Shown here one piece after another: positions 1 through 31,397 of a DNA stretch of 36,297 nt. The position numbers were made by a program, and so were the translations under genes. The DNA is from Yokenella regensburgei (GTDB lineage: Bacteria > Pseudomonadota > Gammaproteobacteria > Enterobacterales > Enterobacteriaceae): contig NZ_JAHVDV010000040.1 in assembly GCF_051486985.1 (NCBI RefSeq), positions 2,241-38,537 of the forward strand, in the 5' to 3' direction. The stretch's first letter is position 1. Each line of letters begins with the position of its first letter. The notes beneath the pieces were generated by a model, which was given only the letters and a program-made list of their open reading frames with translations, was not told where the DNA came from and searched no databases.

Positions 1-693
<693 letters not shown>

Positions 694-716
694 ACAACGC
701 CGAAGCTGTTTTGGCG

Positions 717-820
717 TGAGGTGGTCCCACCTGACCCCATGCCGAACTCAGAAGTGAAACGCCGTAGCGCCGATGGTAGTGTGGGGTCTCCCCATGCGAG
801 AGTAGGGAACTGCCAGGCAT
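717..820 (+). rRNA. rrf: 5S ribosomal RNA, 5'-truncated copy (about 100 of 120 nt present; first ~20 nt and most of the 23S-5S spacer absent)
   Basis: Positions 721-820 match E. coli 5S from ggtggtcccacctgacc.. through the 3' end ..gggaactgccaggcat. The expected 5' segment tgcctggcggcagtagcgcg is replaced by a 23S-distal spacer fragment (..gctgttttggcg) joined through tgag. Confidence 0.8.
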
Positions 821-6285: not shown

Positions 6286-8007
6286 ATGTCGCGTGGGCTG
6301 GAACTACTGATTGCACAAACCATTCTGCAGGGCTTCGACGCCCAGTATGGTCGTTTTCTGGAGGTTACCTCCGGGGCGCAGCAGCGCTTTGAACAAGCCG
6401 ACTGGCATGCGGTACAGCAGGCGATGAAACAACGCATCCATCTCTACGATCACCATGTGGGGCTGGTGGTGGAACAACTGCGCTGTATTACTGATAACCC
6501 GCGCCCTGACCCCGATTTTCTCCTTCAGGTTAAAGCGCACTATACCCAGCTTCTTCCGGACTATCCGCGCTATGAAATCGCCGAGAGTTTTTTTAACTCC
6601 GTATATTGCCGCCTGTTCGATCACCATGCGCTGACGCCCGAGCGGCTATTCATATTCAGTTCTCAGCCAGAACGCCATTTTCGTGAGCATGCCCGTCCGC
6701 TGGCAAAAGATTTTTACCCTGAAGCTTGTTGGGAAACGCTGCTGACGCGGGTGCTCAGTGATTTACCATTACGCCTGCCCTGGCAGAACCTGACGCGGGA
6801 CGTGGGCTACATCATTGCCCATCTGGTGGAAACCTTCGGTGTTGAGGTGCTACGCAAGGCGCATCTGCATATCGCCAATGAACTCTTTTATCGTAATAAA
6901 GCGGCCTGGCTGGTAGGCAAACTGGTTACGCCTGCGGGGACGCTGCCTTTTTTGTTGCCGATTCACCGTAGCGATGATGGCGAGCTTTTTGTGGATACCT
7001 GTCTGACGGCCATCGCTGAAGCCAGCATCGTATTTGGCTTCGCCCGCTCCTACTTTATGGTTTATGCACCACAGCCTGCCGCGCTGGTGGAGTGGCTGCG
7101 GGAAATCCTGCCCGGCAAAACTACCGCCGAGTTGTATATGGCAATTGGCTGCCAGAAGCATGGCAAAACCGAAAGCTACCGTGAATATCTGAGCTACCTT
7201 GCGGGCAGTGATGAGCAGTTTATCGAAGCGCCGGGCATACGCGGCATGGTGATGCTGGTGTTCACTCTGCCGGGCTTTGATCGGGTGTTTAAAATCATTA
7301 AGGACCAGTTCCCGCCGCAAAAAGAGATGAGTGCCGCCCATGTACGTGCCTGCTATCAGCTTGTCAAAGAGCACGATCGCGTAGGGCGCATGGCGGACAC
7401 CCAGGAGTTCGAAAACTTCGTGCTGGAGAAACGCCGGATAGCACCAGAATTAATGGCATTGCTATTTAAAGAGGCATCACAAAAGATCACCGACCTCGGC
7501 GATCGCATTGTCATCAGCCATCTTTATATCGAGCGGCGGATGGTGCCGCTCAATCTGTGGTTTGAGCGGGTAAGCGGTCAGCAGCTGCGCGATGCCGTTG
7601 AGGAGTATGGTAACGCGATTCGCCAGCTTGCGGCCGCGAATATTTTTCCCGGCGATATGTTGTTTAAAAACTTCGGCGTCACCCGCCACGGGCGTGTGGT
7701 GTTCTACGACTATGACGAAATTTGCTACATGACCGAGGTGAATTTCCGGGATATTCCTCCGCCGCGCTACCCGGAAGACGAGATGAGTGCGGAACCCTGG
7801 TACAGCGTCGCGCCGGGAGATGTGTTCCCGGAGGAATTTCGCCACTGGCTCTGCGCAGACCCGCAAATCGGACCTTTATTTGAGGAGATGCATGCGGACC
7901 TGCTGCGGGCAGATTACTGGCGCGGGTTACAAACACGTATTAAAAACGGCCACGTGGAGGATGTTTACGCCTACCGCCGGCGCCAGCGGTTTTGTATTAG
8001 AAGGTAA
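6286..8007 (+). CDS. aceK: isocitrate dehydrogenase kinase/phosphatase
   Basis: 573 aa, [47 protein letters not shown].., near-identical to the E. coli AceK N-terminus. Confidence 0.97.
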
Positions 8008-8037: not shown

Positions 8038-8170
8038 AGGGTTTGTACCTTCTCACTGTAACTGTTTTATTCACATTGCGCTGTGTTATCGCTGTAAAGC
8101 GTAATGTTACTGAGGCCTCCTCTCCCGGTGGGCTGAGGAATCCTCATAAAAAATGCGAGCACAGACGGTT

Positions 8171-8210
8171 CCCTCTCCTCTTAGGGGAGAGGGCCAGGAT
8201 AAGGGCATCA
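8171..8210. repeat. palindromic intergenic repeat (ccctctcctcttaggggagagggccaggataagggc) between convergent aceK and iclR
   Basis: Same motif family as the flanks of the aceA-aceK array and the arrays at 35347 and 35950. Confidence 0.7.
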
Positions 8211-8213
8211 GCC

Positions 8214-9041
8214 TTAGCGCATCCCGCCCCAGGCCAGCGTCACCTCTTTCGCCCCTTTGATCGCCATCGCCCCCAGCTCCGTCACCCGGTCATCCGTGAT
8301 GCGTGAAACCGGACCCGAAATAGAGATTGCCGCGAACGGCACGCCATGTTCATCATAAATACAGGCGGCAACGCAGCGCAGACCCAGTGCATGCTCTTCG
8401 TCATCAAAGGAGTAGCCGCGCTTGCGCGTCTGGGCAAGATCTTCTTTAAGATGTATCGGCGAGACCAGCGTCGCATGGGTATAAGCATGCAGCCCTTTAC
8501 GATGCAGCAAGCCCGTGACCTGCTCCTCGCTTAACTGAGACAGAAAAGCTTTCCCCGCCCCTGAAGCGTGCATCGGCAGCTTGCCGCCAATCGGTGCGGA
8601 CATACGCATAAGCTGGGTGCACTGCACCTGGTCGATAATAATGGCCTGATGATCGCTCTGGTCGAGTACCGCCAGGTTGACCGTTTCGCCGGAGTTCTCC
8701 ATCAGGGTGCGCAAAATCGGATGCACAATCGCCATCAGATTGCGGCTTTGCAGGAAGCTGCTGCCGACGATAAAGGCATGCGCCCCTACGGACCAGTGGC
8801 CCAGTTCGCCCACCTGACGCACAAACCCCAGTTGTTGCATGGTGGTCAGTAAGCGGTGGGTGGTGGAGTTGGGCAAGCCAGCCTGCTGTGCCAGTTCGGT
8901 TAACGCCACGCTGCCGTGGGATTCAGCAATGGACTCCAGCAGCTTAAGCCCGCGCGTTAACGACTGGACCTGACCTGTGGGTTGCGTGGCAGCGGCAGTA
9001 GCGGGTTTTCTGCCGCGTTTAGCGGGTACATTGGCAACCAT
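8214..9041 (-). CDS. iclR: glyoxylate-bypass transcriptional repressor IclR
   Basis: 275 aa, MVANVPAKRGRKPATAAATQPTGQVQSLTRGLKLLE.., colinear with E. coli IclR. Confidence 0.97.
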   Translation of the reverse strand: MVANVPAKRGRKPATAAATQPTGQVQSLTRGLKLLESIAESHGSVALTELAQQAGLPNSTTHRLLTTMQQLGFVRQVGELGHWSVGAHAFIVGSSFLQSRNLMAIVHPILRTLMENSGETVNLAVLDQSDHQAIIIDQVQCTQLMRMSAPIGGKLPMHASGAGKAFLSQLSEEQVTGLLHRKGLHAYTHATLVSPIHLKEDLAQTRKRGYSFDDEEHALGLRCVAACIYDEHGVPFAAISISGPVSRITDDRVTELGAMAIKGAKEVTLAWGGMR

Positions 9042-19157: not shown

Positions 19158-19361
19158 TTAGTCACTGACTGAGCGAGATAGCTGTTCGCGGGATAAACCC
19201 GTGCTGGCTGCAACCTGTGTCATCCCTTTCGCACGCGCCACGACGCCTAACGCTTTTGCACTGTACGCGGCATCGCCTGTTTCAAACGCATCAGCCATAA
19301 AGATGGCAATTTCATCATCAACCAGCGCAGTGGCGGGATCATAGAGGGTAAGGTTGTTCAT
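19158..19361 (-). CDS. putative addiction-module antidote protein (HigA / HI1420-like HTH antitoxin), 67 aa
   Basis: MNNLTLYDPATALVDDEIAIFMADAFETGDAAYSAKALGVVARAKGMTQVAASTGLSREQLSRSVSD. Its start overlaps the stop of an upstream toxin-like reading frame by 23 nt. May be C-terminally short relative to the family. Confidence 0.6.
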   Translation of the reverse strand: MNNLTLYDPATALVDDEIAIFMADAFETGDAAYSAKALGVVARAKGMTQVAASTGLSREQLSRSVSD

Positions 19362-19808: not shown

Positions 19809-20687
19809 ATGCTGCCAGACTCATCAACCCGATTAAATAAATACATCAGTGAGAGCGGAATCTGCTCGCGCCGCGAGGCCGACCGCTTTATCGAACAAGG
19901 CAACGTCTTTATTAATGGTAAACGCGCTGCCATTGGCGATCAGGTTAAGCCCGGTGACGTTGTGAAGGTCAACGGCCAGTTGATTGAGCCGCGCGAAGCC
20001 GATGATTTAGTGCTGATTGCGCTGAACAAACCGGTCGGTATTGTCAGCACAACCGAAGATGGTGAGCGCGATAACATCGTGGACTTCGTTAACCACAGTA
20101 AGCGCGTTTTCCCTATTGGCCGTCTGGATAAAGACTCTCAGGGGCTGATTTTTCTTACCAACCACGGCGACCTGGTCAACAAGATTTTGCGCGCCGGTAA
20201 CGATCACGAAAAAGAGTATCTGGTGACGGTGGATAAACCCGTTACCGACGATTTCATCCGTGGCATGGGCGCGGGTGTACCGATCCTGGGTACCGTCACC
20301 AAAAAATGCAAGGTCAAGAAAGAGGCACCTTTTGTGTTTCGCATTACCCTGGTGCAGGGGCTGAACCGCCAGATCCGCCGCATGTGCGAACACTTTGGAT
20401 TTGAAGTGACCAAACTGGAGCGCACCCGCATCATGAACGTCAGCCTGACGGGCATTCCACTGGGTGAATGGCGTGATCTCACCGACGATGAGCTGATCGA
20501 CCTCTTTAAACTCATCGAGAATTCGTCGTCTGAAGCGAAGCCGAAAGCGAAGGTAAAACCGAAGGCCGCAGCGACAACCGCGAAGAAACCGGCAGCCAGC
20601 GGGGCGAAAAACATGGCAAAAACCCCGGCGGAGCTGGCGTCACGCAAACGCTTTACCGCACCGGGTCGTAAGAAGAAAGGACGTTAA
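19809..20687 (+). CDS. rluF: 23S rRNA pseudouridine(2604) synthase RluF
   Basis: 292 aa, [40 protein letters not shown].., as E. coli RluF. AGGAG RBS. The track ORF start at 19650 is rejected. Confidence 0.95.
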
Positions 20688-20956
20688 CGCCTGCCGCGCG
20701 TTGAGGTACTGGCCGACCACGAAAAGGTGGCCGCTTCATCCGGTTTGTAAGCCTGCTTTTTCTTTAACTGGCGGGCTTTTTTTGCCTCTGCTTCCCGCTC
20801 CACCATCAGTTTGTCGATGTACTCTTTTTTGACGTTATTGGTTTCGGCGTTGGTCAGCACGCGTCCGTGGGCAATGCGTGCGCGATCCAGTAACGTTTTC
20901 AGTTCACGCTGTTCGCGCTCGGTCATCTCTTTTTGCGTAATGCGGGGGAGTGCCAT
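20684..20956 (-). CDS. yjbD: DUF3811 protein YjbD
   Basis: 90 aa, [32 protein letters not shown].., near-identical to E. coli YjbD. Overlaps the rluF stop by 4 nt. Confidence 0.9.
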
Positions 20957-21055
20957 GGGTGTGCCCTCAGTGGGAAAGTGAACCCAGTGTACGGCAATGT
21001 GGCGAAGCTCACCATGATATAAGCCGGGTAAGCGTGAGCCACCCGGCTTTGCTCA

Positions 21056-21997
21056 TTACTTTTGCGTCACTCTGTCCTGCGGTTGCTGTTCAATAGGCTT
21101 ACCAGACCAGTAGCCTGCCAGCAGCGAACCGGAGAGGTTGTGCCACACCGAGAACAGTGCCCCCGGCAGGGCCGCCAGCGGGGAAAAGTAGATTTTACCG
21201 AGCGCTGCCGCCAGCCCGGAGTTTTGCATACCCACTTCAATCGCAAGCGTGCGGCAGGTGGACTCGTCAAAACCAAACAGACGTCCGCCCCAGTAGCCGC
21301 ACAGCAGACCGATGCTGTTATGCAGAATCACCGCCACTATCACCACCAGGCCGACTGACGCAATGTGTGCCGCAGAACCCGCCACCACCGCGCTGATGAT
21401 CGCCAGAATGCAGACCATTGAAAATGCCGGCAGGTACGGCTCTACAGCTTTCACCACACGTGGGAACAGATGGTGAACGACCAGACCGAGGCCAATCGGT
21501 ATCACCACAATTTGCAGGATGCTGAGCAGCATACCCATGATATCAACCTGAATATGCGCGTCCACGTAGAGGCGGGTGAGCAGCGGCGTGGCAATCACGC
21601 CCACCAGCGTGGAGACAGACGAAATCGTCACGGAGAGCGCCACATCACCCTTCGCCAGATAGATCATCACGTTGGAGGCCGTGCCGCTTGCCACGCTGCC
21701 AACCAGCACCATCCCGGCAGAAAGGTCCGGCGGCATGTTGAAAATCATCGCCAGCAGCCAGGCGGCTAATGGCATCACAAGGTAGTGCAGAAAAGTCCCT
21801 GCGGCGACGGGAGCCGGGCGCGACAGCACACGCTTAAAGTCGTCAATTTTTAAGTGTACGCCCATGCCAAACATAATCAGCATCAGAAGCGTGCTGACCC
21901 AGGGGCCAATGGGCGTAAAGGTAGAGGGCGTGTAATAAGCAACAACAGAGAGCAGCAGCGCCCATAACGGGAACAGCCGGGTCAGTACGGCGAGCAT
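21056..21997 (-). CDS. bile acid:sodium symporter (BASS) family transporter, 313 aa
   Basis: Starts [22 protein letters not shown] with AAGGAAA 5 nt upstream. Polytopic membrane protein. The upstream in-frame extension of the 354-aa track ORF runs into the ERIC element and is rejected. Confidence 0.8.
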
Positions 21998-22036
21998 AGC
22001 GATTTCCTTGCAGGTGTGGTGTTGTGTTTCGTTATG

Positions 22037-22160
22037 TACCCTAACTAATTCGAGTCGCCGGAAGGCGGCAAGTGTGTGACTCCCAGGGAGCTTACCGAAG
22101 TAAGTGACTGGGATGAGCAAACACAGCCAACACGCGTGCGGCCTGAAGTATGACGGGTAT
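22037..22160. repeat. ERIC (enterobacterial repetitive intergenic consensus) element, copy A, in the 5' leader of the BASS transporter gene
   Basis: Contains ..tgactcccagggagcttaccgaagtaagtgactgggatgagc.., matching the ERIC core (ERIC1R/ERIC2 primer regions CCCAGGAGCTTACAT / AAGTAAGTGACTGGGGTGAGCG). 124-bp imperfect palindrome. Confidence 0.85.
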
Positions 22161-22165
22161 AAAAA

Positions 22166-22190
22166 AGGCCGGGATCGAGCACGGCCATAG
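22166..22190 (-). terminator. probable rtcR terminator
   Basis: On the minus strand, a GC hairpin ggccgtgctcgatcccggcc followed by tttttt, just after the rtcR stop. Confidence 0.5.
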
Positions 22191-22244
22191 GTATTGTTTA
22201 TCGTGTGCGGAAAAAATATTCAAACAAATTATGGTGAAGAGGAT

Positions 22245-23825
22245 TCATGTGCCGGTGTGGATGCTTTCCCAGCTCAGCCCGAAACGGGCCAGATATTTGC
22301 GCAGACGGTCGGCATCGTTAGGATTGGCTTTCTTCAGCCGTGAGACGGCAAACAGCTCGCGGCCTGCCCCGGAGAGAGAGGTACTGCGGCGGCACACCTC
22401 CAGCACCGTTTCGAGCTGGCGCTGGTCAAAGAGATCAATCTCTTCATTGAGCGGCGTGGGGGCAGGTATGCTGCGCCAGTTCTGTTGTAAGCGTGTAATC
22501 TCCTCTTCAGCGCCGGCCAGGGTGATACGACCTTGCTCCGCAAGCGTTGCCATACGGGCAATGGACGAACTCAGCTCGCGGAAGTTGCCGCGCCACTGCG
22601 CCTGAGCGGAACAGGCAAAGGCCAGATAGCGCTCACGGGCTTCTTTGTCGAAGCGGATCTGCGTTTGCGCTTCTGCCGAGAAGCGTTGCAGTTCAAATTC
22701 GATATTGGGGGCGATGTCTTCCCGCCGCTCGGCAAGCCCAGGCAGGGCGAAGGTCCACATATTGATACGTGCGTAGAGATCCTCGCGAAACCGTCCTTCC
22801 ATCACCCACTGGTGCATATCCCGGTGGGTTCCGGCGATAAGCTGAAAATCGCTGTGGACCTCTTTATCTGATCCGAAGGGAAAAAAGGTTTTTTCCTCAA
22901 TGGCTTTTAGCAGCATCGCCTGTTCGTCCAGCCCCAGTTCGGCAATTTCATCCAGAAAGAGTACCCCTCCATCCGCCTCGCGCAGTAACCCCTGGCGTGA
23001 TGAGAGCGCCCCGGTAAAAGCGCCTTTCACGTGGCCAAACAGCGTGGACATGGCGTTATCGCCACGCAACGTGGCGCAGTTGACCGCCACCAGTCTGCCC
23101 GCCACCCGGTGCCGAGCCTGACGCAGCTGAAAAATACGTTTCGCCAGGAAGGATTTCCCGGCACCTGTCGGGCCGGTAAGCAGAATCGGGGCCGTGGAGC
23201 GTAAGGCGACACGTTCGATCTGTTCTATAAGCGTATTAAAGGTTGCGTTGCGGGTATCGATACCCGCTTTCAGCAGAGACACCGCGTGCTGCTGCTCGCG
23301 CTGAAAGCGGCTGGTTAAGGTGGCGTAGCGGCTCAAATCCAGGTCGATGACAGAATGTACCCCCGCCGCAACATCTTCTTCTGAGGAGCCTTTGGGTGCC
23401 GGACCGGTTTGCAGAAGGCTGGCGGGCAGATAGCGGGCCTCCGTCAGTAAAAACCAGCAAATCTGTGCCACGTGCGTGCCGGTGGTGATATGCACCAAGT
23501 ACTCTTCGTTGTCGGTATCAAAGTCATAGTGGGTCGCAAAATCGAGAAACGCAGCGTAGACCTCTTCAAAGTCCCAGGGGTCCTGGATCGTCACGCTGTG
23601 CGGACGCACCTCCGTCCCGGGGGAGAGAAGGGCAATATCTTCCGCCAGTTGTTGTGCCATACCGATGTCGCGTGGCTGATGGAGCAGTTCCAGCCGATCG
23701 ACTGGCAAATCCGGCTGCTGACACAACCCGACCGTTGGCCGCCATTTGCGCAGGCGGTTGGCCCGTTTTCCCCGCTTGTCGAGTACCGTACCAAGAACAC
23801 CAATCACTACCCTGCGTTTCTTCAT
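22245..23825 (-). CDS. rtcR: sigma-54-dependent transcriptional activator RtcR (N-terminal CARF domain, AAA+ domain, HTH)
   Basis: 526 aa from MKKRRVVIGVLGTVLDKRGKRANRLRKWRPTVGLCQQ.., colinear with E. coli RtcR including GPTGAGKSFLA and GAFTGA..GLLR motifs. The 20-aa N-terminal extension in the track ORF is rejected. Confidence 0.9.
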   Translation of the reverse strand: MKKRRVVIGVLGTVLDKRGKRANRLRKWRPTVGLCQQPDLPVDRLELLHQPRDIGMAQQLAEDIALLSPGTEVRPHSVTIQDPWDFEEVYAAFLDFATHYDFDTDNEEYLVHITTGTHVAQICWFLLTEARYLPASLLQTGPAPKGSSEEDVAAGVHSVIDLDLSRYATLTSRFQREQQHAVSLLKAGIDTRNATFNTLIEQIERVALRSTAPILLTGPTGAGKSFLAKRIFQLRQARHRVAGRLVAVNCATLRGDNAMSTLFGHVKGAFTGALSSRQGLLREADGGVLFLDEIAELGLDEQAMLLKAIEEKTFFPFGSDKEVHSDFQLIAGTHRDMHQWVMEGRFREDLYARINMWTFALPGLAERREDIAPNIEFELQRFSAEAQTQIRFDKEARERYLAFACSAQAQWRGNFRELSSSIARMATLAEQGRITLAGAEEEITRLQQNWRSIPAPTPLNEEIDLFDQRQLETVLEVCRRSTSLSGAGRELFAVSRLKKANPNDADRLRKYLARFGLSWESIHTGT

Positions 23826-23920
23826 GTTTATCCTGCAAGATAAATTCCGATAACTTAGTATAAAAATACAGCTAAGTGAACACAAGTTAGTTAAAAGCGA
23901 TTGTCATAAAATTACTTATT

Positions 23921-23934
23921 TATCAATAGCTTAA
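23921..23934. promoter_or_regulatory. IHF-like site (tATCAAtagcTTA) between rtcR and the sigma-54 promoter
   Basis: Matches WATCAANNNNTTR. Placement is typical of the IHF-bent DNA upstream of sigma-54 promoters. Confidence 0.35.
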
Positions 23935-23960
23935 ATAAATTATTTTCTTTTTTATCTTTC

Positions 23961-23976
23961 TGGCACGCTTCTGGCA
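23961..23976 (+). promoter_or_regulatory. sigma-54 (-24/-12) promoter driving the SPFH-rtcB-NTase operon
   Basis: TGGCACgcttcTGGCA against the consensus TGGCAC-N5-TTGCA (one mismatch). Divergent from rtcR, as for the E. coli rtcBA promoter. Confidence 0.75.
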
Positions 23977-23987
23977 ATAGCTAATAC

Positions 23988-24270
23988 GTCACGATGCTGA
24001 GCACGCAGGGGGTAAGGCCCCGCCAGCGCACCCGGAACGGTAAGACGTTATCCGCGGGGCGTTCTGTCAGCACCGGGACACATTAAGGGTTCGATTCCCG
24101 ACTCACCCTTCCAGGTGAACACTGGTTGTATTGGTTAATGCGCTGTCAGGTTGGTAACGACAGCAACACACCGGCGCCGATAAGGGTTCCGGGTCGCAGG
24201 CAAAACAGGCTGGCAGGAGTGGCCTGTTCCCCTCCGGCTCCGCACCTGCATCCGTGCCGGTACGTGAAAA
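23988..24270 (+). ncRNA. non-coding, GC-rich leader RNA with tRNA-like motifs (candidate Y-RNA-like / tRNA-mimic RNA) upstream of the SPFH-rtcB operon
   Basis: No ORF on this strand for about 300 nt after the sigma-54 promoter. Canonical tRNA T-arm consensus GGGTTCGATTCCC at 24087-24099. The 3' segment ctcaccc (24103-24109), followed by ttcca, can pair 6/7 with gggtaag (24010-24016) as an acceptor-like stem. A second taagggttcc module sits at 24181. I found no full canonical cloverleaf. Confidence 0.5.
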
Positions 24271-24284
24271 GATAAGGATGAAAA

Positions 24285-25403
24285 ATGAATAAGAAAATCA
24301 CTATTCGTAAAGGACAGTTGGCTCTGCTGGCAAAAGCAGGCGATTACACCCACATTTTTGAGGCAGGAGAGCACCGTCTCCCCAGGTTTGGTAAGCAGGA
24401 GGTCACCTTCGTTGATCTCAATGGCGGGGATGTGGAGAGAGAACTTGCTCACTATCTGCGCCGTTTCCGGCCGGAATGGGTCGACGCCTACTGCCTGACC
24501 GCTGATACCACCGAGCATAACGTTGCTGCGCTGTACCGTAATGACATCCTCGTGGAAATCATACCTCCCGCTTCGCGTCGGATGTTCTGGCAGGACGGCA
24601 GCCTGAGCATTGCATTGCTGGATACTAAGGATGCGCGCGTGCCTGAGCGCATCATGAATGCCGTACTGCAACCACGTACTGCCATTAAGGGACGGGAAGC
24701 CATCCAGACCGTCAACGTCGGAGCATGGCATGTCGGCGTCCTGAAAATTGATGGTGTTACACAGCCGCTGTTGCCACCGGGCATCACCGCCTACTGGCAG
24801 GTGAACCATCTGATTGAGGCGGATGTTGTCGACACGCGTTTGCAGGTGATGGAGGTCACGGGGCAGGAGATCCTGACCAAAGACAAAGTGAATTTGCGCA
24901 TCAACCTGGGCGCAAACTGGCACTACAGTGACGTCTTACGGGCGTTCAGTCAGCTTAGTAAACCGCTGGAGCATCTCTATCGCGAGTTACAGTTTGCTCT
25001 GCGTGAAGCGGTAGGGACCCGTACACTTGATGAACTCCTGGAAGACAAGCAGGTGATCGACAGCGTGGTGAGCGCCCAGGTTAAAACGCGCATGACGCCC
25101 TTTGGCATGGATATCGCCTCGCTGGGGGTGAAGGACATCGTACTGCCAGGCGACATGAAAACTATCCTGGCAAAACTGGTGGAGGCGGAAAAATCAGCAC
25201 AGGCGAATGTGATTCGTCGACGTGAAGAGACAGCGGCGACCCGATCATTACTGAACACCGCAAAAGTGATGGAAAGCAACCCGGTGGCACTGCGCTTAAA
25301 AGAGCTGGAAACCCTGGAAAGAGTGGCGGAGCGTATCGATAAGATCTCCGTCTTCGGTGGCCTGGATAATGTACTGAATGGACTGGTGAATATTAAAGGA
25401 TAA
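24285..25403 (+). CDS. SPFH/band-7 (stomatin/prohibitin-like) domain protein with a ~180-aa non-membrane N-terminal domain of unknown function
   Basis: 372 aa. The C-terminal half (QVMEVTGQEILTKDKVNLRINLGANWHYSDV..TRTLDELLEDKQVIDSVV..PFGMDIASLGVKDIVLPGDMKTILAKLVEAEKSAQANVIRRREETAA) has the SPFH signature. No N-terminal TM helix. AAGGA RBS. Confidence 0.8.
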   Translation: MNKKITIRKGQLALLAKAGDYTHIFEAGEHRLPRFGKQEVTFVDLNGGDVERELAHYLRRFRPEWVDAYCLTADTTEHNVAALYRNDILVEIIPPASRRMFWQDGSLSIALLDTKDARVPERIMNAVLQPRTAIKGREAIQTVNVGAWHVGVLKIDGVTQPLLPPGITAYWQVNHLIEADVVDTRLQVMEVTGQEILTKDKVNLRINLGANWHYSDVLRAFSQLSKPLEHLYRELQFALREAVGTRTLDELLEDKQVIDSVVSAQVKTRMTPFGMDIASLGVKDIVLPGDMKTILAKLVEAEKSAQANVIRRREETAATRSLLNTAKVMESNPVALRLKELETLERVAERIDKISVFGGLDNVLNGLVNIKG

Positions 25404-25407
25404 CCTC

Positions 25408-26634
25408 ATGCAGCATAACGAATTTCAACTGTTAACGGCGCAAAACAGCGCGCCAATAAAAATGTGGACCCACGGAGTTCCGGTCGAGCCTGAGGCGCGT
25501 GCGCAGTTGCAGAACACGGCGAAGATGCCGTTTATTTTTCAGCATCTGGCGGTGATGCCGGATGTGCATCTGGGTAAAGGCTCCACCATCGGCAGCGTGA
25601 TCCCAACCAAAGGGGCCATCATTCCGGCGGCGGTCGGCGTGGATATAGGTTGTGGCATGATCGCTGTACGTACTTCGCTTATGGCAAGCGACCTGCCCGA
25701 TAACCTGAGTGGACTGCGCAGCGCCATTGAGCAGGCGGTGCCGCACGGGCGAACCAGTACCCGCTCCGGGCGTGATAAAGGGGCCTGGGAAACGCCCCCG
25801 CAGGAAGTGGATAACCACTGGTCGCTGCTGTCAGCGCGCTTTAAGCGCCTGACGGATAGCTATCCGCAGTTACTGAAAACCAATAATTATCAGCACCTGG
25901 GTACGCTCGGGACGGGCAACCACTTTATAGAGATCTGCCTGGACGAGCAGCAGCGCGTGTGGGTGATGCTACATAGCGGATCCCGCGGCGTGGGTAACGC
26001 CATCGGTACGCTGTTTATTGCGCTGGCGCAGCAGGATATGCAGCAGCATATTGCCAACCTGCCGGATAAAAACCTGGCCTATTTCCAGGAGGGGAGTAAG
26101 CACTACGACGATTACATGGAGGCGGTCTCATGGGCGCAGGATTTTGCCCGTCATAACCGGGAAGTGATGATGGCGCGCGTGCTGGCGGCGCTGTCACGCA
26201 TCGTGACGAAGCCGTTCATGACGCAGCAGGAAGCGGTGAATTGCCACCATAACTATGTCCAAAAAGAGCGCCATTTTGGTGAAGAGGTGCTGGTGACGCG
26301 CAAAGGGGCGGTCTCCGCGCAAAAAGGCCAGATGGGGATTATTCCCGGTTCGATGGGGGCCAAAAGTTTTATCGTGCGGGGACTGGGGAACGAAGAGAGT
26401 TTCTGCTCCTGTAGTCATGGCGCAGGGCGTGCGATGAGCCGTACGGCTGCGAAAAAGCGCTTCACCGTTGATGACCAGATTCGCGCTACCGCGCATGTTG
26501 AATGTCGTAAAGACAGCGACGTCATTGATGAAATTCCGATGGCCTACAAGGATATCGATGCGGTCATGGCGGCACAGGCGTCGCTGGTGGAAATCGTTCA
26601 CACCCTGCGTCAGGTGGTGTGTGTAAAAGGATAA
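25408..26634 (+). CDS. rtcB: RNA-splicing ligase RtcB (3'-phosphate/5'-hydroxyl RNA ligase)
   Basis: 408 aa, colinear with E. coli RtcB from about residue 10 (MWT.GVPVE..AKMPFIF.H.AVMPDVHLGKGSTIGSVIPTKGAIIPAAVGVDIGCGM.., C-terminal ..IDEIPMAYKDIDAVMAAQ..LRQVVCVKG). 4-nt gap after the SPFH gene. AAAGGA RBS. Confidence 0.95.
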   Translation: MQHNEFQLLTAQNSAPIKMWTHGVPVEPEARAQLQNTAKMPFIFQHLAVMPDVHLGKGSTIGSVIPTKGAIIPAAVGVDIGCGMIAVRTSLMASDLPDNLSGLRSAIEQAVPHGRTSTRSGRDKGAWETPPQEVDNHWSLLSARFKRLTDSYPQLLKTNNYQHLGTLGTGNHFIEICLDEQQRVWVMLHSGSRGVGNAIGTLFIALAQQDMQQHIANLPDKNLAYFQEGSKHYDDYMEAVSWAQDFARHNREVMMARVLAALSRIVTKPFMTQQEAVNCHHNYVQKERHFGEEVLVTRKGAVSAQKGQMGIIPGSMGAKSFIVRGLGNEESFCSCSHGAGRAMSRTAAKKRFTVDDQIRATAHVECRKDSDVIDEIPMAYKDIDAVMAAQASLVEIVHTLRQVVCVKG

Positions 26635-26638
26635 AAAA

Positions 26639-27424
26639 ATGACGGTCAATGGTGTGGATGCTGGCATGCGCGAACGCGTGCGGCAGCATTTGAAGAGGGT
26701 TGAGCAGGACTATGGTGTTCGGGTGCTCTACGCCTGCGAGTCCGGCAGTCGGGGGTGGGGCTTTGCCTCACCGGATAGTGACTATGACGTGCGATTTTTA
26801 TACGTGCATCCACCGGAATGGTACTTACAAGTGGAGACACCACGTGACGTTATCGAACTGCCGATCAATGATGAGCTGGACGTGAGCGGTTGGGAGTGGC
26901 GCAAAGCGCTGGGCTTGCTAAAAAGCGCCAACCCGACACTGATTGAGTGGCTGGATTCGCCTGTCGTTTACCAACGGGAGGAGGCGGTGATAGCGGCGCT
27001 CAGCGCGCAGGTGCCGAAATGGTTTTCTCCCGTGCGGGCGCGCTGGCACTACTACTCTATGGCCCGCAGAAACTTTCACAGCTATTTGCAGGGCGATGAG
27101 GTGCGGTTGAAGAAGTATTTCTATGTGCTGCGTCCGTTACTGGCCGTGCGTTGGGTGGAAGCAGGAAAAGGCGTTCCTCCTATGCGCTTTGCCGAACTGC
27201 TGGCAGGCAGTGAACTGGAGGCGGAGCTGCGTCTGGAGATAAAGGAACTGCTGGCGCGTAAGCAGCGTGCCGGAGAAGCGCAGTATGGTGCACCTTTGCC
27301 ACGCTTGCATGCGTTTATCGCCGCGGAGATCGACAGGGGCACGCTTCCTCCCGTGTTACCAGATAGTCGGGATGGAGAGGTGAAAGCGCTTGATCGGTTG
27401 TTGTATCAAACGGTGATGGCATAA
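26639..27424 (+). CDS. polymerase-beta superfamily nucleotidyltransferase (261 aa), at the position where rtcA follows rtcB in E. coli
   Basis: NTase motif GSRGWGFASPDSDYDVRF (hG[GS]-x9-13-D.D). 4-nt gap after the rtcB stop. AAAGGA RBS. Confidence 0.75.
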   Translation: MTVNGVDAGMRERVRQHLKRVEQDYGVRVLYACESGSRGWGFASPDSDYDVRFLYVHPPEWYLQVETPRDVIELPINDELDVSGWEWRKALGLLKSANPTLIEWLDSPVVYQREEAVIAALSAQVPKWFSPVRARWHYYSMARRNFHSYLQGDEVRLKKYFYVLRPLLAVRWVEAGKGVPPMRFAELLAGSELEAELRLEIKELLARKQRAGEAQYGAPLPRLHAFIAAEIDRGTLPPVLPDSRDGEVKALDRLLYQTVMA

Positions 27425-27427
27425 AAC

Positions 27428-27458
27428 GAGGCCGGACAGGGTTGCCCTTCCGGCCTCT
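27428..27458. terminator. bidirectional terminator between the NTase gene and convergent lysC
   Basis: gaggccggacagggttgcccttccggcctc inverted repeat. Confidence 0.6.
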
Positions 27459-27464
27459 GCCTTG

Positions 27465-28814
27465 TTATTCGAACAGATTATGGTGCAGTTTCTGAACGAC
27501 CTGCTCCGCTTCGCTGCCCGGCACCAGGAAGCACAGGTTGTGGCTGGATGCGCCGTAGCAAATCATACGGATATTGAACGGTTCGAGTACACCAAAAACC
27601 TCTTTGCCGACGCCGCAGGCTTTCGACAGGTCATTACCAATAATCGCCACCAGCGCCAGGTTTTCTTCCACCTCTACCCGGCAGAGTGAAGAGAGCTCGG
27701 TCAACAGCGCCTGCGTCAGCAGGGTATCTCCGGTAGAGGTAGAACCGGTGGTGTCCAGCGTCAGCGCCACGCTCACTTCCGAGGTGGTAATGAGGTCAAC
27801 CGAGATGCTGTGGCGCGCCAGAATGCCGAATACTTCCGCCAGGAAACCGCGGGAGTGCAGCATGTTAAGGCTGTGCAGCGTCAGCAGGGTCTGCTTACGG
27901 CGCAGAGCCAGCGCCCGGAACAGCGGAGGATTGCTGGTTGTATTGCAGACCAGGGTGCCGCCTGCTTTTGGATCTTTACTGGAACCCACGAACACCGGGA
28001 TGTCGCTGCGTACGGCAGGAAGCAGGGTGGCAGGATGCAGCACTTTCGCGCCAAAAGTAGCCATTTCAGCCGCTTCTTCAAAGGCAATTTCGTCGATGCG
28101 TTTGGCCGAAGGCACTACGCGTGGGTCGGTGGTATAGATGCCTGGAACGTCAGTCCAGATATCAACGCGGGCGGCATGCAGGGCTTCACCAAGCAGGGCG
28201 GCGGTATAATCGCTGCCCCCGCGGCCCAGGGTCGTGGTGCGGCCTTTAGCTTCGCTGCCAATAAAGCCCTGGGTGACCACCATGCCGTCGGCGAGTCGCG
28301 GGGCGAGCTGCTGGGTGGCGAGTTCCGCCAGGGCGGCAACGTCCGGCTCGGCACGACCAAAACGATCGCTGGTGCGCATCACTTTACGTACGTCAAACCA
28401 CTGCGACTGAATATCGCGTTCGCGCAGGATTTCAACAAACAGCAGGGTCGACATCAGTTCGCCGTGGCTGACCAGTTCGTCGGTCAGTGCGGTGGAGGTT
28501 GCCAGGGAAGCGGCTTCGGCAAGCGTGGTGATGTTTTCCAGCAGGCGTTCGATCTCTTCCCGGATAACGTTCGGGTTGGCCAGGCGTTCCAGGATATCGA
28601 ACTGAATTTTACGGATAGCATCAAGTTTGACGAAGCGCTCGGTGGACTCCAGCCCTTCGGCGAGCGCAACCAGCAGATTGGTGACGCCAGCAGAAGCGGA
28701 GAGCACCACTAAGCGGGTATTCGGGTCGGCGAGCACCACATCGGCGCTGTGGTTCATGGCATCATAATTTGCCACACTGGTACCGCCAAACTTGGCGACA
28801 ACTAATTCAGACAT
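27465..28814 (-). CDS. lysC: lysine-sensitive aspartokinase III
   Basis: 449 aa, MSELVVAKFGGTSVANYDAMNHSADVVLADPNTRLVVLSASAGVTNLLVAL.., as E. coli LysC. Confidence 0.97.
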   Translation of the reverse strand: MSELVVAKFGGTSVANYDAMNHSADVVLADPNTRLVVLSASAGVTNLLVALAEGLESTERFVKLDAIRKIQFDILERLANPNVIREEIERLLENITTLAEAASLATSTALTDELVSHGELMSTLLFVEILRERDIQSQWFDVRKVMRTSDRFGRAEPDVAALAELATQQLAPRLADGMVVTQGFIGSEAKGRTTTLGRGGSDYTAALLGEALHAARVDIWTDVPGIYTTDPRVVPSAKRIDEIAFEEAAEMATFGAKVLHPATLLPAVRSDIPVFVGSSKDPKAGGTLVCNTTSNPPLFRALALRRKQTLLTLHSLNMLHSRGFLAEVFGILARHSISVDLITTSEVSVALTLDTTGSTSTGDTLLTQALLTELSSLCRVEVEENLALVAIIGNDLSKACGVGKEVFGVLEPFNIRMICYGASSHNLCFLVPGSEAEQVVQKLHHNLFE

Positions 28815-28834: not shown

Positions 28835-29090
28835 TCGATTATTCAGCCATGGCACAAGGGAAGAGCGAAAGGGGTAGGCGCAGCAAACTACGATTACACC
28901 CAGAAGTGCTCCACCACTTGTGAAACGCCCGACTGCGAACGTTTCTGGTGACAACTCAGGGGATTCAGCCCCTGTAGCCGATGGTGATTGCTGCCGTGCA
29001 ATCCACCACCTCGGCGGTGCTCCCCCTCACGTATCGTCTCCGGATGGGCTCCTCGAATACGGTTACCTGGGCAACGCTCCTCTTCTGGCT
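28835..29090 (-). ncRNA. lysine riboswitch (lysC leader, L-box)
   Basis: The minus-strand leader matches the E. coli lysC leader as I recall it: ..gccagaagaggagcgttgccc.. at the 5' end, ..catcggctacaggggctgaatcccctgagttgtcacc.. centrally, and ..ctcttcccttgtgccatggctgaa..cccctgacacgagg before the ATG. Confidence 0.85.
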
Positions 29091-29392
29091 ATTACCTTCG
29101 CCTTTCACACTCTCTGTAGCGAGAAATGCTCTGGTAATACACAAACTCGCCTGTAGGCGGGTAGCGCATATAGAAATAAAGGCTCGCGGCATCCCTGTCA
29201 ATGTTGTGATTATGCGGATTTTTCATGCAGAGGAATCGATTAGAAAAAGGGCTTATGTTGGGCTAATTTATTGCTTTATTTCGCCCGTTTTGCCGCGGCG
29301 TCCGGGAGTGGAAAACAAAAACCATCACAATTTTTGTTCGCAGGCGCTACAATCGACCGCAGTCACAATTCTCAAATCAGAAGAGTATTGCT

Positions 29393-31039: not shown

Positions 31040-31085
31040 TTTTTTTTGCATCCTTAGCGATGCGCCGGATATGCTATAAAAAAAT

Positions 31086-31109
31086 GCCGACATTGCGTCG
31101 GCTTTTTTT
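31086..31109 (+). terminator. pgi rho-independent terminator
   Basis: gccgac-attgc-gtcggc followed by ttttttt. Confidence 0.8.
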
Positions 31110-31397
31110 ATCGGATAAATCTTCTTCCCACTATTAATACCTAATTCCGCGCTCTGAGGTTATTCTGAAAAGCAAGAATAACCGTTTAATGTCCAGGCGT
31201 TATTTTCAGATGTTACCTATACTTCCCAACTGGGTGAGTAATTTTAACAATATGAAATATAAAGGTTTTAAATTAAATATATAATTTTTATATATCTCTT
31301 TTATCCAATTTTCTTAAAACTTCCCGCTACGTTTCCCATTCGATTAATAGCCTGCTTTAGTTGTGTATACTCGTACTCGCCTGATTATTTCAGGCAC

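Follow-up and report, generated by a model that had tools for sequence, protein, structure and literature searches.

E. coli K-12 has yjbD and lysC as direct neighbors, with an empty site between them. In the Yokenella regensburgei DNA analyzed here (36,297 nt, referred to as the window), the same interval contains panS, an ERIC repeat, rtcR, a sigma-54 promoter, a leader, and an SPFH-RtcB-RlaP operon. This raises the question of what the cluster does, and whether it is a distinct and possibly undescribed variant of an RNA-damage-response operon, as the original prediction from this DNA proposed. All of the elements listed in that prediction are present where it had placed them, as judged by ORFs and profile matches, and the K-12 adjacency it gave is confirmed. 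The RNA-repair cluster is real but it is not new, since a system of this kind was predicted in 2016, as far as later papers convey that work, and since several enterobacterial genera have it at the same chromosomal location. Its features, in window coordinates, are:

20684-20956, minus strand: yjbD (PF11656)
about 21056-21995, minus strand: panS, BASS-family ketopantoate/pantoate/pantothenate transporter (NF047939, E 2.4e-164, ORF residues 43-341; PF01758 SBF)
22041-22168, between panS and rtcR: ERIC/IRU-type dispersed repeat
22245-23825, minus strand, divergent from the operon: rtcR, CARF-domain sigma-54-dependent activator
23921-23933, plus strand: candidate IHF-like site TATCAATAGCTTA upstream of the sigma-54 promoter, proposed from sequence
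23961-23976, plus strand: predicted sigma-54 promoter TGGCACGCTTCTGGCA, -24 box TGGCAC and -12 box TGGCA
about 23986-24284, plus strand: structured leader of ~300 nt upstream of SPFH
23996-24071, plus strand: leader domain 1, three-way junction (P1 23996-24000/24067-24071, H1 24005-24023, H2 24024-24066; RNAalifold)
24087-24099, plus strand: T-arm-like hairpin GGGTTCGATTCCC, GGG-TTCGATT-CCC, with a T-stem of 3 bp
24103-24118, plus strand: hairpin H4, TCACC-CTTCCA-GGTGA, directly 3' of the T-arm
24142-24164, plus strand: hairpin H5, GCTGTC...GACAGC with a GTTRRC-type loop (enteric alignment columns 293-318, compensatory changes judged by eye)
24172-24259, plus strand: leader domain 2, long interrupted stem ending about 25 nt before the SPFH start codon
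24285-25403, plus strand: SPFH/Band_7 protein ("slipin family"), predicted soluble (PF01145, E 1e-21)
25408-26634, plus strand: RtcB 3'-phosphate/5'-OH RNA ligase (PF01139, E 1e-132)
[quoted passage not shown]
27429-27457, between convergent rlaP and lysC: putative bidirectional terminator, GC-rich hairpin GAGGCCGGA...TCCGGCCTC, read from sequence
27465-28814, minus strand: lysC

Profile searches of the three operon ORFs returned SPFH (PF01145), RtcB (PF01139), and a nucleotidyltransferase (PF10127), the families that had been proposed for them. Both gene junctions have 4-nt gaps with AAAGGA ahead, in agreement with the gaps and ribosome binding sites described earlier, and SPFH-RtcB-RlaP reads as a translationally coupled operon. 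RtcB is 72% identical to E. coli RtcB and contains the catalytic motifs GCG (Cys), GNHF, HSGSRG, and HGAGR (His337). RlaP covers profile positions 1-248 of the 249 in PF10127 and carries the Pol-beta core motif GSRGWGFASPDSDYD (GS-x10-DxD, residues 36-50; pattern hG[GS]-x9-13-Dh[DE]). It is 51-58% identical to RlaP from Pseudomonas, Dechloromonas, and Azonexus rtc operons, and 52-55% identical to that of the Pseudomonas loci L010, L013, and L019. RlaP homologs from Pseudomonas add NMPs to RNA 3'-OH ends, and the resulting 3'-OH end is not ligatable by RtcB, a problem flagged by the RlaP authors (PMC12776372).

The original prediction noted neither RtcA nor Rsr in this locus, and this is borne out. 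A tblastn search with E. coli RtcA gave no match in the 36-kb window, with the convergent lysC directly after rlaP, and the Rsr (Ro60/TROVE) gene and YrlA/YrlB RNAs are absent, every ORF in 20957-27460 being assigned to other families and the leader matching no Rfam family at E up to 10. RtcB accepts both 3'-phosphate and 2',3'-cyclic phosphate ends, and because of this rtcA would be dispensable. The hairpin that separates rlaP from lysC is likely a bidirectional terminator; a consensus terminator scan made no call there.

The SPFH protein has no transmembrane segment (maximum 19-residue Kyte-Doolittle mean 0.96). It has the SPFH domain and C-terminal helices common to stomatin, HflK/C, and flotillin, lacks the N-terminal membrane anchor of those proteins, and in a structure model begins with two beta-rich repeats and has a fold that resembles cage-forming SPFH proteins. 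An SPFH protein of P. aeruginosa, PaFlo8, lies inside an rtc locus (2026 paper, PMC13086221). Deletion of the P. aeruginosa SPFH homolog gave no phenotype in the assays used, and we found no experimental validation of the module's soluble SPFH protein or tRNA-derived RNA in the literature.

The rtcR product matches NF038308 (E 8e-247), the PADLOC model RtcR--CARF_AAA_HTH (E 5e-261), and PF06956 RtcR, PF00158, and PF25601 (RtcR/CARF, sigma-54 AAA+, and lid domains), and is 61% identical to E. coli RtcR. Its start is likely MKKRRVV rather than an upstream TTG. In Salmonella, the CARF domain of RtcR is controlled by RNA fragments with cyclic-phosphate ends, and RtcR is activated by tRNA fragments (PMC7790460), which is consistent with the control by such ligands suggested for the Yokenella activator. 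The facing sigma-54 promoter had been described as a consensus site. TGGCACGCTTCTGGCA has one mismatch to TGGCAC-N5-TTGCW, since its -12 box is TGGCA, and a bare-pattern match in the window is not above chance, but TGGCAC-N5-TGGCA is invariant in 15/15 enterobacterial loci (positions -309 to -364 relative to the SPFH start). Transcription is predicted to start near 23986. TATCAATAGCTTA fits WATCAANNNNTTR, which we take to be the IHF consensus, and the ATCAAT..TTAAA block of this IHF-like site is partly conserved in the alignment of the 15 enteric loci.

The leader between this promoter and SPFH has a fold that is well supported by covariation in the same alignment. Helices 1-3 of domain 1 are 93-100% paired, with compensatory changes in 16 of 22 pairs, and helices 5 and 6 of domain 2 (21 pairs) are 96% paired, with compensatory changes in 13. 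For the whole leader, 96.9% of cells are paired versus 37-54% with slid partners, compensatory changes occur in 30 of 46 pairs versus 5-10 with slid partners, and 0/500 shuffles reach the observed values. The stem of H4 varies by genus with its pairing kept (TCACC/GGTGA, TTCTC/GAGAA, TTCAT/ATGAA, TTCGCC/GGTGAA), and non-enteric loci have an equivalent hairpin directly after the tRNA-like module. In the supported fold, separate hairpins come after a three-way junction, and there is no cloverleaf. No terminator-like site was found in the leader by the consensus scan, and the leader has no Rfam match even at E 10.

The original prediction called this leader tRNA-like, a term that is valid in Yokenella for the T-arm only. 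ARAGORN finds 0 tRNA genes in the window, the Rfam tRNA model has no match, and the leader does not have the four-armed cloverleaf (acceptor, D, anticodon, T) of a genuine tRNA gene. GGTTC(G/A)AnTCC is found in 15/15 enteric leaders, and since its core bases are invariant while the surroundings diverge, the T-loop motif appears to be under selection. Among Rtc-linked loci, 56 of 58 have the motif upstream of SPFH, versus a background of 0.12 per kb. In other proteobacteria it forms the T-arm of full cloverleaf modules, and the non-enteric modules are called as tRNAs by ARAGORN and Rfam. From the order shared by the Yokenella leader and its relatives (T-arm, hairpin, GCAGTAC motif, long stem) and from Cronobacter-type intermediates, in which an acceptor stem and a remnant of the D-loop (AGTCGGT) are retained, we infer that the T-arm hairpin is probably a homologous relic of a full band-7-associated tRNA-like module. 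Because no detector calls a tRNA and the T-stem is only 3 bp, tRNA-like function may be lost in Yokenella. The reduction of the enteric module to a T-loop hairpin inside a structured, covarying leader without an Rfam match may be new.

A synteny survey of 88 SPFH loci places the gene content of the Yokenella operon among its relatives. This type of system (Band-7/b7a-tRNA/RtcB) is widespread in the surveyed beta- and gammaproteobacteria and patchily distributed over proteobacteria, and its usual beta-/gammaproteobacterial form is rtcR<>tRNA-like-SPFH-RtcB-RlaP-RtcA. The order rtcR<>SPFH-RtcB-RlaP-RtcA was found in 12/88 loci and, without rtcR, in one more; RtcA and RlaP are swapped in 5/88. 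SPFH-RtcB-RlaP without RtcA occurs in nine of the 88 (the Yokenella window, six other enteric loci, one Burkholderia, and one truncated locus), and the loss of rtcA in the enterobacterial form may also be new. Seven enteric loci keep leader, SPFH, and RlaP without RtcB, which suggests that SPFH need not act through the adjacent ligase; a form without rtcB is found in Klebsiella oxytoca.

A Band-7 protein beside RtcB with a predicted "band 7-associated tRNA" is credited to Burroughs and Aravind 2016 (10.1101/312249), and on this later account the variant was not undescribed. As relayed in 10.1101/312249, PMC12776372, and PMC6514570, Burroughs and Aravind (NAR 2016) predicted Band-7/SPFH - b7a-tRNA - RtcB (- RlaP) systems by comparative genomics. 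The type so relayed likewise has SPFH directly upstream of rtcB, RlaP in the operon, and a divergent rtcR, and it has a tRNA-derived non-coding element directly upstream of SPFH. Here the tRNA-like module is probably reduced to a T-loop hairpin within a larger leader, and rtcA is absent. Pseudomonas rtcR-(SPFH)-rtcB-rlaP-rtcA loci (PfRlaP and PaRlaP, PMC12776372; PaFlo8, PMC13086221) have the same protein set but keep rtcA and have two tandem full tRNA-like modules. The E. coli rtcR-rtcBA locus shares the divergent, sigma-54-dependent layout (RtcR 61% and RtcB 72% identical); it has rtcA, lacks SPFH, RlaP, and a long structured leader (its intergenic region is 189 nt), and lies at glpR-malT rather than panS-lysC. 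Salmonella rsr-yrlBA-rtcBA, with a Ro60 ortholog and Y RNAs, is likewise RtcR-controlled and encodes, alongside RtcB, a putative scaffold protein and an RNA with a tRNA-like domain (PMC7790460; 10.1101/312249). In Yokenella, in contrast, the scaffold is SPFH and not Rsr/TROVE, the RNA is in the 5' leader and not between genes, and there is neither a Y-RNA stem nor RtcA. The eukaryotic vault particle (MVP, vault RNA, and the TROVE protein TEP1) is a likeness by analogy only.

In our view the locus is probably a reduced, Enterobacteriaceae form of the "Band-7/SPFH plus tRNA-like RNA" type of RNA-repair operon, controlled by RtcR and dependent on sigma-54. Damage to translation RNAs would yield fragments with 2',3'-cyclic phosphate ends, and these, by extension from the Salmonella ortholog, would bind the CARF domain of RtcR, which would then activate sigma-54 RNA polymerase at the observed TGGCAC-N5-TGGCA. 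A single transcript would carry the ~300-nt structured leader and the three translationally coupled genes. RtcB, given its family and catalytic motifs, is expected to reseal 3'-phosphate or 2',3'-cyclic phosphate ends to 5'-OH ends, and RlaP, from its family and the activity of its Pseudomonas homologs, may extend RNA 3'-OH ends by one or two nucleotides and so replace residues lost to trimming once the RNA has been cleaved. The least certain step concerns the soluble SPFH protein, which may form a ring or cage through its SPFH domain and long helices, like other SPFH proteins, and may use RNA derived from the leader, whose T-loop is the only invariant tRNA feature, as a cofactor or scaffold for the repair enzymes.

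It is unlikely that the segment is a recently acquired, strain-specific mobile genomic island. The empty site in E. coli K-12, the lack of the module in any E. coli genome, its patchy spread over proteobacteria, and its position at a different site beside a phage-type integrase in [Enterobacter] lignolyticus would all fit such an origin. Against it, Phytobacter, Kluyvera, Cronobacter, Franconibacter, and Citrobacter all share the identical context rluF-yjbD-panS-rtcR<>SPFH-rtcB-rlaP-lysC-pgi, so that what the original prediction took as distinct is the ordinary arrangement, in order and in site, of at least five further enterobacterial genera, a kind of result that the prediction itself had listed as counting against it. 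Neither an integrase nor a tRNA attachment site nor direct repeats occur in the window, and the GC content of the inserted region equals that of its flanks, which argues against a recent Yokenella-specific insertion. The further proposal, implied by the original prediction, that RlaP functionally replaces the missing RtcA, based on its place after rtcB where E. coli has rtcA, is highly improbable. Genes for both enzymes are present in 18 of the 88 loci of the survey, as well as in P. fluorescens and P. aeruginosa; the enzymes belong to unrelated families, RlaP adding NMPs to 3'-OH ends and RtcA cyclizing 3'-phosphates; and since the usual beta-/gammaproteobacterial form has both, RlaP accompanies RtcA rather than replacing it.

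Two other explanations concern the RNA itself. The leader could act purely in cis, as a 5' UTR that sets how stable the SPFH-rtcB-rlaP mRNA is or how well it is translated, without being released or serving as a cofactor, and the T-hairpin would then be a relic; we regard this as possible but doubtful. It would suit a module reduced to a 3-bp T-hairpin that ARAGORN and Rfam do not recognize, a domain 2 that ends close to the start codon, and a leader that is wholly part of the mRNA and lacks its own promoter and terminator. However, the invariance of the T-loop in 15 enteric loci points to selection on the motif, no RBS-sequestering helix or attenuator was found in the leader, and the modules of most relatives are complete cloverleaves, which tRNA-processing enzymes should excise. 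A role of the tRNA-like RNA as a sentinel or decoy, cleaved by or titrating anticodon nucleases or ribotoxins and so feeding cyclic-phosphate fragments to RtcR or shielding real tRNAs, seems improbable to us. [quoted passage not shown] Yet many relatives have a GNRA or UUCG tetraloop or a 5-nt loop where the anticodon loop would be, the "anticodons" are freely variable, an anticodon arm is missing altogether from the enteric form, and the conserved part is the T-arm/elbow, which is not the target site of these nucleases.

Within the repair-operon interpretation, we tentatively raise a more specific possibility, itself rather doubtful, that the ~300-nt sigma-54 leader of enteric SPFH-(RtcB)-RlaP loci is a distinct uncatalogued RNA class, derived from tandem b7a-tRNA-like modules by loss of all tRNA features but the T-loop, and the partner of a soluble vault-like SPFH repair assembly. 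Leader, SPFH, and RlaP would be its functional core, because this unit persists in the seven enteric loci without rtcB. The SPFH-type Rtc module is carried by Yokenella and by several Enterobacteriaceae of clinical relevance (Citrobacter, Cronobacter, Kluyvera, Phytobacter, and, with a module that lacks rtcB, Klebsiella oxytoca). Its enteric version, which has no RtcA and a tRNA mimic reduced to the T-loop, is minimal by nature, and its hosts are genetically tractable relatives of E. coli, which itself lacks the module. This makes it a convenient system for addressing the part that SPFH and the RNA play in repair, and the way in which the 3'-OH end left by RlaP is made suitable for RtcB.

The panS gene, whose position is the same in the surveyed loci L082-L087, is a neighbor of the repair module and not a functional part of it. 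The ERIC element proposed between panS and rtcR is supported by a dispersed-repeat match: window positions 22040-22170 align to an intergenic repeat (77-82% identity, 92-98% query cover) that is present in 5426/5426 E. coli genomes at a median of 10 copies per genome. The repeat includes AAGTAAGTGACTGGGATGAGCA, a sequence similar to the ERIC2 primer site.

All the elements that the original prediction listed between yjbD and lysC are present, and the families it proposed for the three operon genes (SPFH, RtcB and a nucleotidyltransferase) were each recovered with the expected Pfam profile. The segment and its borders are as follows.

window 20684-20956, - strand: yjbD, left border of the segment
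between yjbD and rtcR: panS, BASS-family transporter (NF047939, E 2e-164)
after panS: rtcR, with RtcR/CARF, sigma-54 AAA+ and lid domains (NF038308, E 8e-247)
strand opposite rtcR: SPFH/Band_7 protein (PF01145, E 1e-21)
SPFH strand: RtcB (PF01139, E 1e-132)
after rtcB: RlaP, 261 aa, matching PF10127 "RlaP, RNA repair pathway DNA polymerase beta family" over its full length (E 9e-95)
window 27465-28814, - strand: lysC, right border, convergent to rlaP

The SPFH-rtcB and rtcB-rlaP junctions have 4-nt gaps with AAAGGA ahead of each, and a GC-rich hairpin sets rlaP apart from lysC. The SPFH protein has a 100% identical counterpart in Yokenella regensburgei. The catalytic motifs of RtcB are all in place, and RlaP carries the Pol-beta GS...DxD signature; a sequence search of the PDB with RlaP gave no match, and PADLOC gave none for SPFH, RtcB or RlaP. 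As the original prediction stated, yjbD adjoins lysC directly in E. coli K-12, and the GC content of the segment is the same as that of its flanks. The panS-rtcR gap holds a 131-bp stretch matching a dispersed intergenic repeat present in about 10 copies in each of 5426 E. coli genomes, which fits the ERIC element predicted there. The absence of rtcA is likewise borne out for the window, where tblastn with E. coli RtcA found no match.

The SPFH family is large: at E < 1e-30 it has 519 cluster representatives. We surveyed 80 loci from one-genome-per-species contigs using the SPFH-family profile, plus 7 enterobacterial loci found by exact-protein look-up, and placed RtcR, RtcB, RlaP and RtcA on all of them by tblastn. 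Among beta- and gammaproteobacteria, the Rtc-linked layout seen most often is rtcR<>SPFH-RtcB-RlaP-RtcA (12 loci, and 1 with the same order lacking rtcR; Azonexus, Pseudomonas, Chitiniphilus and Delftia are examples), and the order of RtcA and RlaP is swapped in 5 further loci (4 Undibacterium and 1 uncultured Burkholderiaceae MAG). Since RlaP and RtcA normally occur together, RlaP is no substitute for RtcA, and we reject the reading that it replaces the cyclase. SPFH-RtcB-RlaP without RtcA is the enterobacterial form: the neighbourhood rluF-yjbD-panS-rtcR<>SPFH-rtcB-rlaP-lysC-pgi is identical in Phytobacter, Cronobacter, Citrobacter, Kluyvera and Franconibacter. Pluralibacter has the module at the same site without rtcB, which is also missing in Superficieibacter, Klebsiella oxytoca, Klebsiella sp., Mangrovibacter (twice) and Lonsdalea. 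In these 7 enterobacterial loci (L002, L003, L004, L005, L060 and L006, with SPFH at 7001 and RlaP at about 8135-8950; L087:4501-6422; positions within each locus), rtcR, a structured leader, SPFH and RlaP are kept with no rtcB between, so that leader, SPFH and RlaP persist without an adjacent ligase. [Enterobacter] lignolyticus carries the module at a different site, next to a phage-type integrase. None of the E. coli genomes contains it, the search returning only canonical rtcB at 73.6% identity.

The sigma-54 element TGGCAC-N5-TGGCA is invariant in our alignment of 15 enterobacterial leaders, the leader being the region of about 300 nt between this promoter and the SPFH start. Its description as a consensus promoter holds in part: the element is there, its -12 box reads TGGCA, not TTGCA, and the bare pattern is not above chance in the window (2 found versus 1.7 expected), so it is the position and invariance of the element alone that lead us to accept the promoter. 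An IHF-like TATCAATAGCTTA upstream of it is partly conserved in the same alignment. On the rtcR strand, a sigma-70-like match no better than chance (GTGCCA-16-AATAAT; window 23939-23966, - strand) overlaps the -24 box; were it a promoter, expression of rtcR could be tied to activation of the operon.

Six helices were predicted by RNAalifold on the 15-leader alignment, and the leader contains the following elements.

window 23996-24071: three-way junction
window 24087-24099: T-hairpin, with T-loop GGTTCGATTCC
window 24103-24118: covarying hairpin
window 24142-24164: further hairpin
window 24172-24259: long stem

Covariation was counted on the unadjusted MAFFT alignment, with controls in which partners were slid by 1-3 columns and with 500 shuffles. 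In the leader helices, 96.9% of cells are paired, versus 37-54% after sliding; compensatory double changes occur in 30 of 46 pairs, versus 5-10 when slid; and none of the 500 shuffles reached either observed value. The single-sequence fold of the tRNA-like stretch is no better than shuffles (z -0.87), so the leader structure rests on comparative evidence. The leader has no terminator-like site, and this, together with its conservation and covariation, indicates a conserved structured RNA rather than a spacer.

The original prediction also called the leader tRNA-like, which survives for the T-arm only. The core of the T-loop motif GGTTC(G/A)AnTCC is invariant in all 15 enterobacterial leaders; no other tRNA feature is recognisable in the Yokenella leader, ARAGORN called no tRNA in the window, and an Rfam search of the leader, taken as far as E 10, gave no match. 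Of the 58 Rtc-linked loci, 56 carry the motif in the 650 nt ahead of SPFH; its background frequency is 0.12 per kb. Non-enteric loci usually have two T-loops upstream of SPFH, spaced 68-79 nt apart; ARAGORN calls many of these modules tRNA, with arbitrary or undefined anticodons, and Rfam scores them as plain tRNA. When the SPFH-proximal modules are aligned, the D-arm (AGCTCAG..GGTAGAGC) and the T-arm are both invariant, the acceptor stem has 4-5 bp, and the "anticodon" arm is freely variable, often ending in a GNRA or UUCG tetraloop. In many of them the anticodon loop has given way to a tetraloop (GAAA or UUCG) or to a loop of 5 nt (for example L014:6649-6765, L013:6674-6790, L036:6623-6739 and L011:6666-6782, positions within each surveyed locus). 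Such modules cannot decode. The two Rtc-linked loci lacking the motif upstream of SPFH (at 7001), L024 and L042 from Pseudomonas entomophila and P. soli, nonetheless have a long GC-rich leader.

Enteric and non-enteric leaders share an element order of T-arm, hairpin, GCAGTAC motif and long stem. Leaders of Cronobacter, Franconibacter, Superficieibacter and Mangrovibacter keep an acceptor-like stem of 5 bp (GCGAA/TTCGC or GAAAA/TTTTC), inside which lie a remnant of the D-loop, AGTCGGT, and a T-arm of 5 bp. In the Yokenella/Phytobacter/Kluyvera clade, the acceptor-like stem and D-loop remnant are gone and a 3-bp T-hairpin remains. [quoted passage not shown]

The proposal that the locus is a possibly undescribed variant fails, although its gene identities were right: several genera have this gene order as their ordinary locus, which is one of the outcomes that the original prediction itself named as refuting it, and it belongs to an already known, computationally described kind. 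The abstract of Burroughs & Aravind 2016 reportedly mentions SPFH/Band-7 modules with a novel tRNA-like molecule, as well as a novel nucleotidyltransferase. The b7a-tRNA was mentioned in no paper of the literature searched other than those named here. The discussion of a preprint that cites Burroughs & Aravind 2016 describes certain bacteria in which the neighbours of RtcB are a Band-7 protein and a "band 7-associated tRNA", the latter a prediction that it says had yet to be validated experimentally (bioRxiv 10.1101/312249). Two modest lineage-specific features distinguish the enteric locus, namely the loss of rtcA and a tRNA mimic of which only a T-loop is left, within a structured leader without a catalogue entry. 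This minimal version would be well suited to studies of the SPFH protein and its RNA.

The best-supported reading of the locus is a repair operon induced through RtcR and sigma-54; its protein families, the coupling of its genes, the conserved promoter, the structured RNA and the synteny are all observed. Salmonella RtcR responds to tRNA fragments with cyclic phosphate ends (PMC7790460), and here RtcR and sigma-54 would induce the operon, RtcB would reseal cleaved RNAs, and RlaP would rebuild trimmed 3' ends. PF10127 owes the name RlaP to the operons that it shares with RNA ligases; the RlaPs of two Pseudomonas loci extend RNA 3'-OH ends by one or two NMPs, giving a product incompatible with RtcB, which is an unsolved problem (PMC12776372). 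RlaP occurs across counter-RNase repair systems (PMC6514570). The soluble SPFH protein and a leader-derived RNA may serve as scaffold or cofactor. The part of the tRNA-like RNA that relatives conserve is the T-arm/elbow, and the anticodon arm has been replaced or lost; this argues against a nuclease sentinel and for an RNA whose elbow is recognised by a partner protein. We also rejected the possibility that the SPFH gene encodes an unrelated membrane protein, given the lack of a TM segment, the T-loop upstream in nearly all Rtc-linked loci and the Rtc linkage itself. Deletion of the SPFH gene in the P. aeruginosa rtc locus gave no phenotype in the assays used (PMC13086221).

BLASTP comparison of the two N-terminal beta repeats of the SPFH protein detected no sequence repeat. 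In some homologues, about 510-550 aa in length (L007:7001-8527, L017:3304-4869, L042:7001-8521, and proteins P0122, P0125, P0126 and P0128), the N-terminal beta-repeat region of the query finds two matches, so the number of these repeats varies within the family. Cyanobacterial homologues (L066-L081; Nostoc, Calothrix, Chlorogloeopsis, Altericista) are 43-45% identical, and none of RtcR, RtcB, RlaP and RtcA lies within 7 kb of them; in nearly all, a T-loop close upstream is missing, and the sequence directly ahead of the gene appears to be coding. In several Burkholderiales loci without rtcR, a tRNA-like-SPFH-RtcB unit follows a same-strand array of 5-16 apparently genuine tRNA genes (L012:5142-6759, L030:3904-6758, L031:1332-3294, L033:5102-6753, L037:65-1409, L044:2527-6580, L053:3807-6580, L055:5417-6403), which suggests that the module also occurs in another setting, one that may be mobile or phage-like.

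Elsewhere in the window, a 67-aa ORF between yjbB and rluF, the place of pepE in E. coli K-12, matches an antidote family; pepE is missing from that position and no toxin partner is evident. This ORF and three RNA features are listed below.

window 19158-19361, - strand: ORF matching PF21716 "probable addiction module antidote protein" (E 5e-12)
window 28896-29092, - strand: lysine riboswitch upstream of lysC (89.6 bits)
window 31073-31226, - strand: STnc430 sRNA match downstream of pgi (55.1 bits)
window 1-818, + strand: 3' end of a 23S rRNA gene and a 5S rRNA gene
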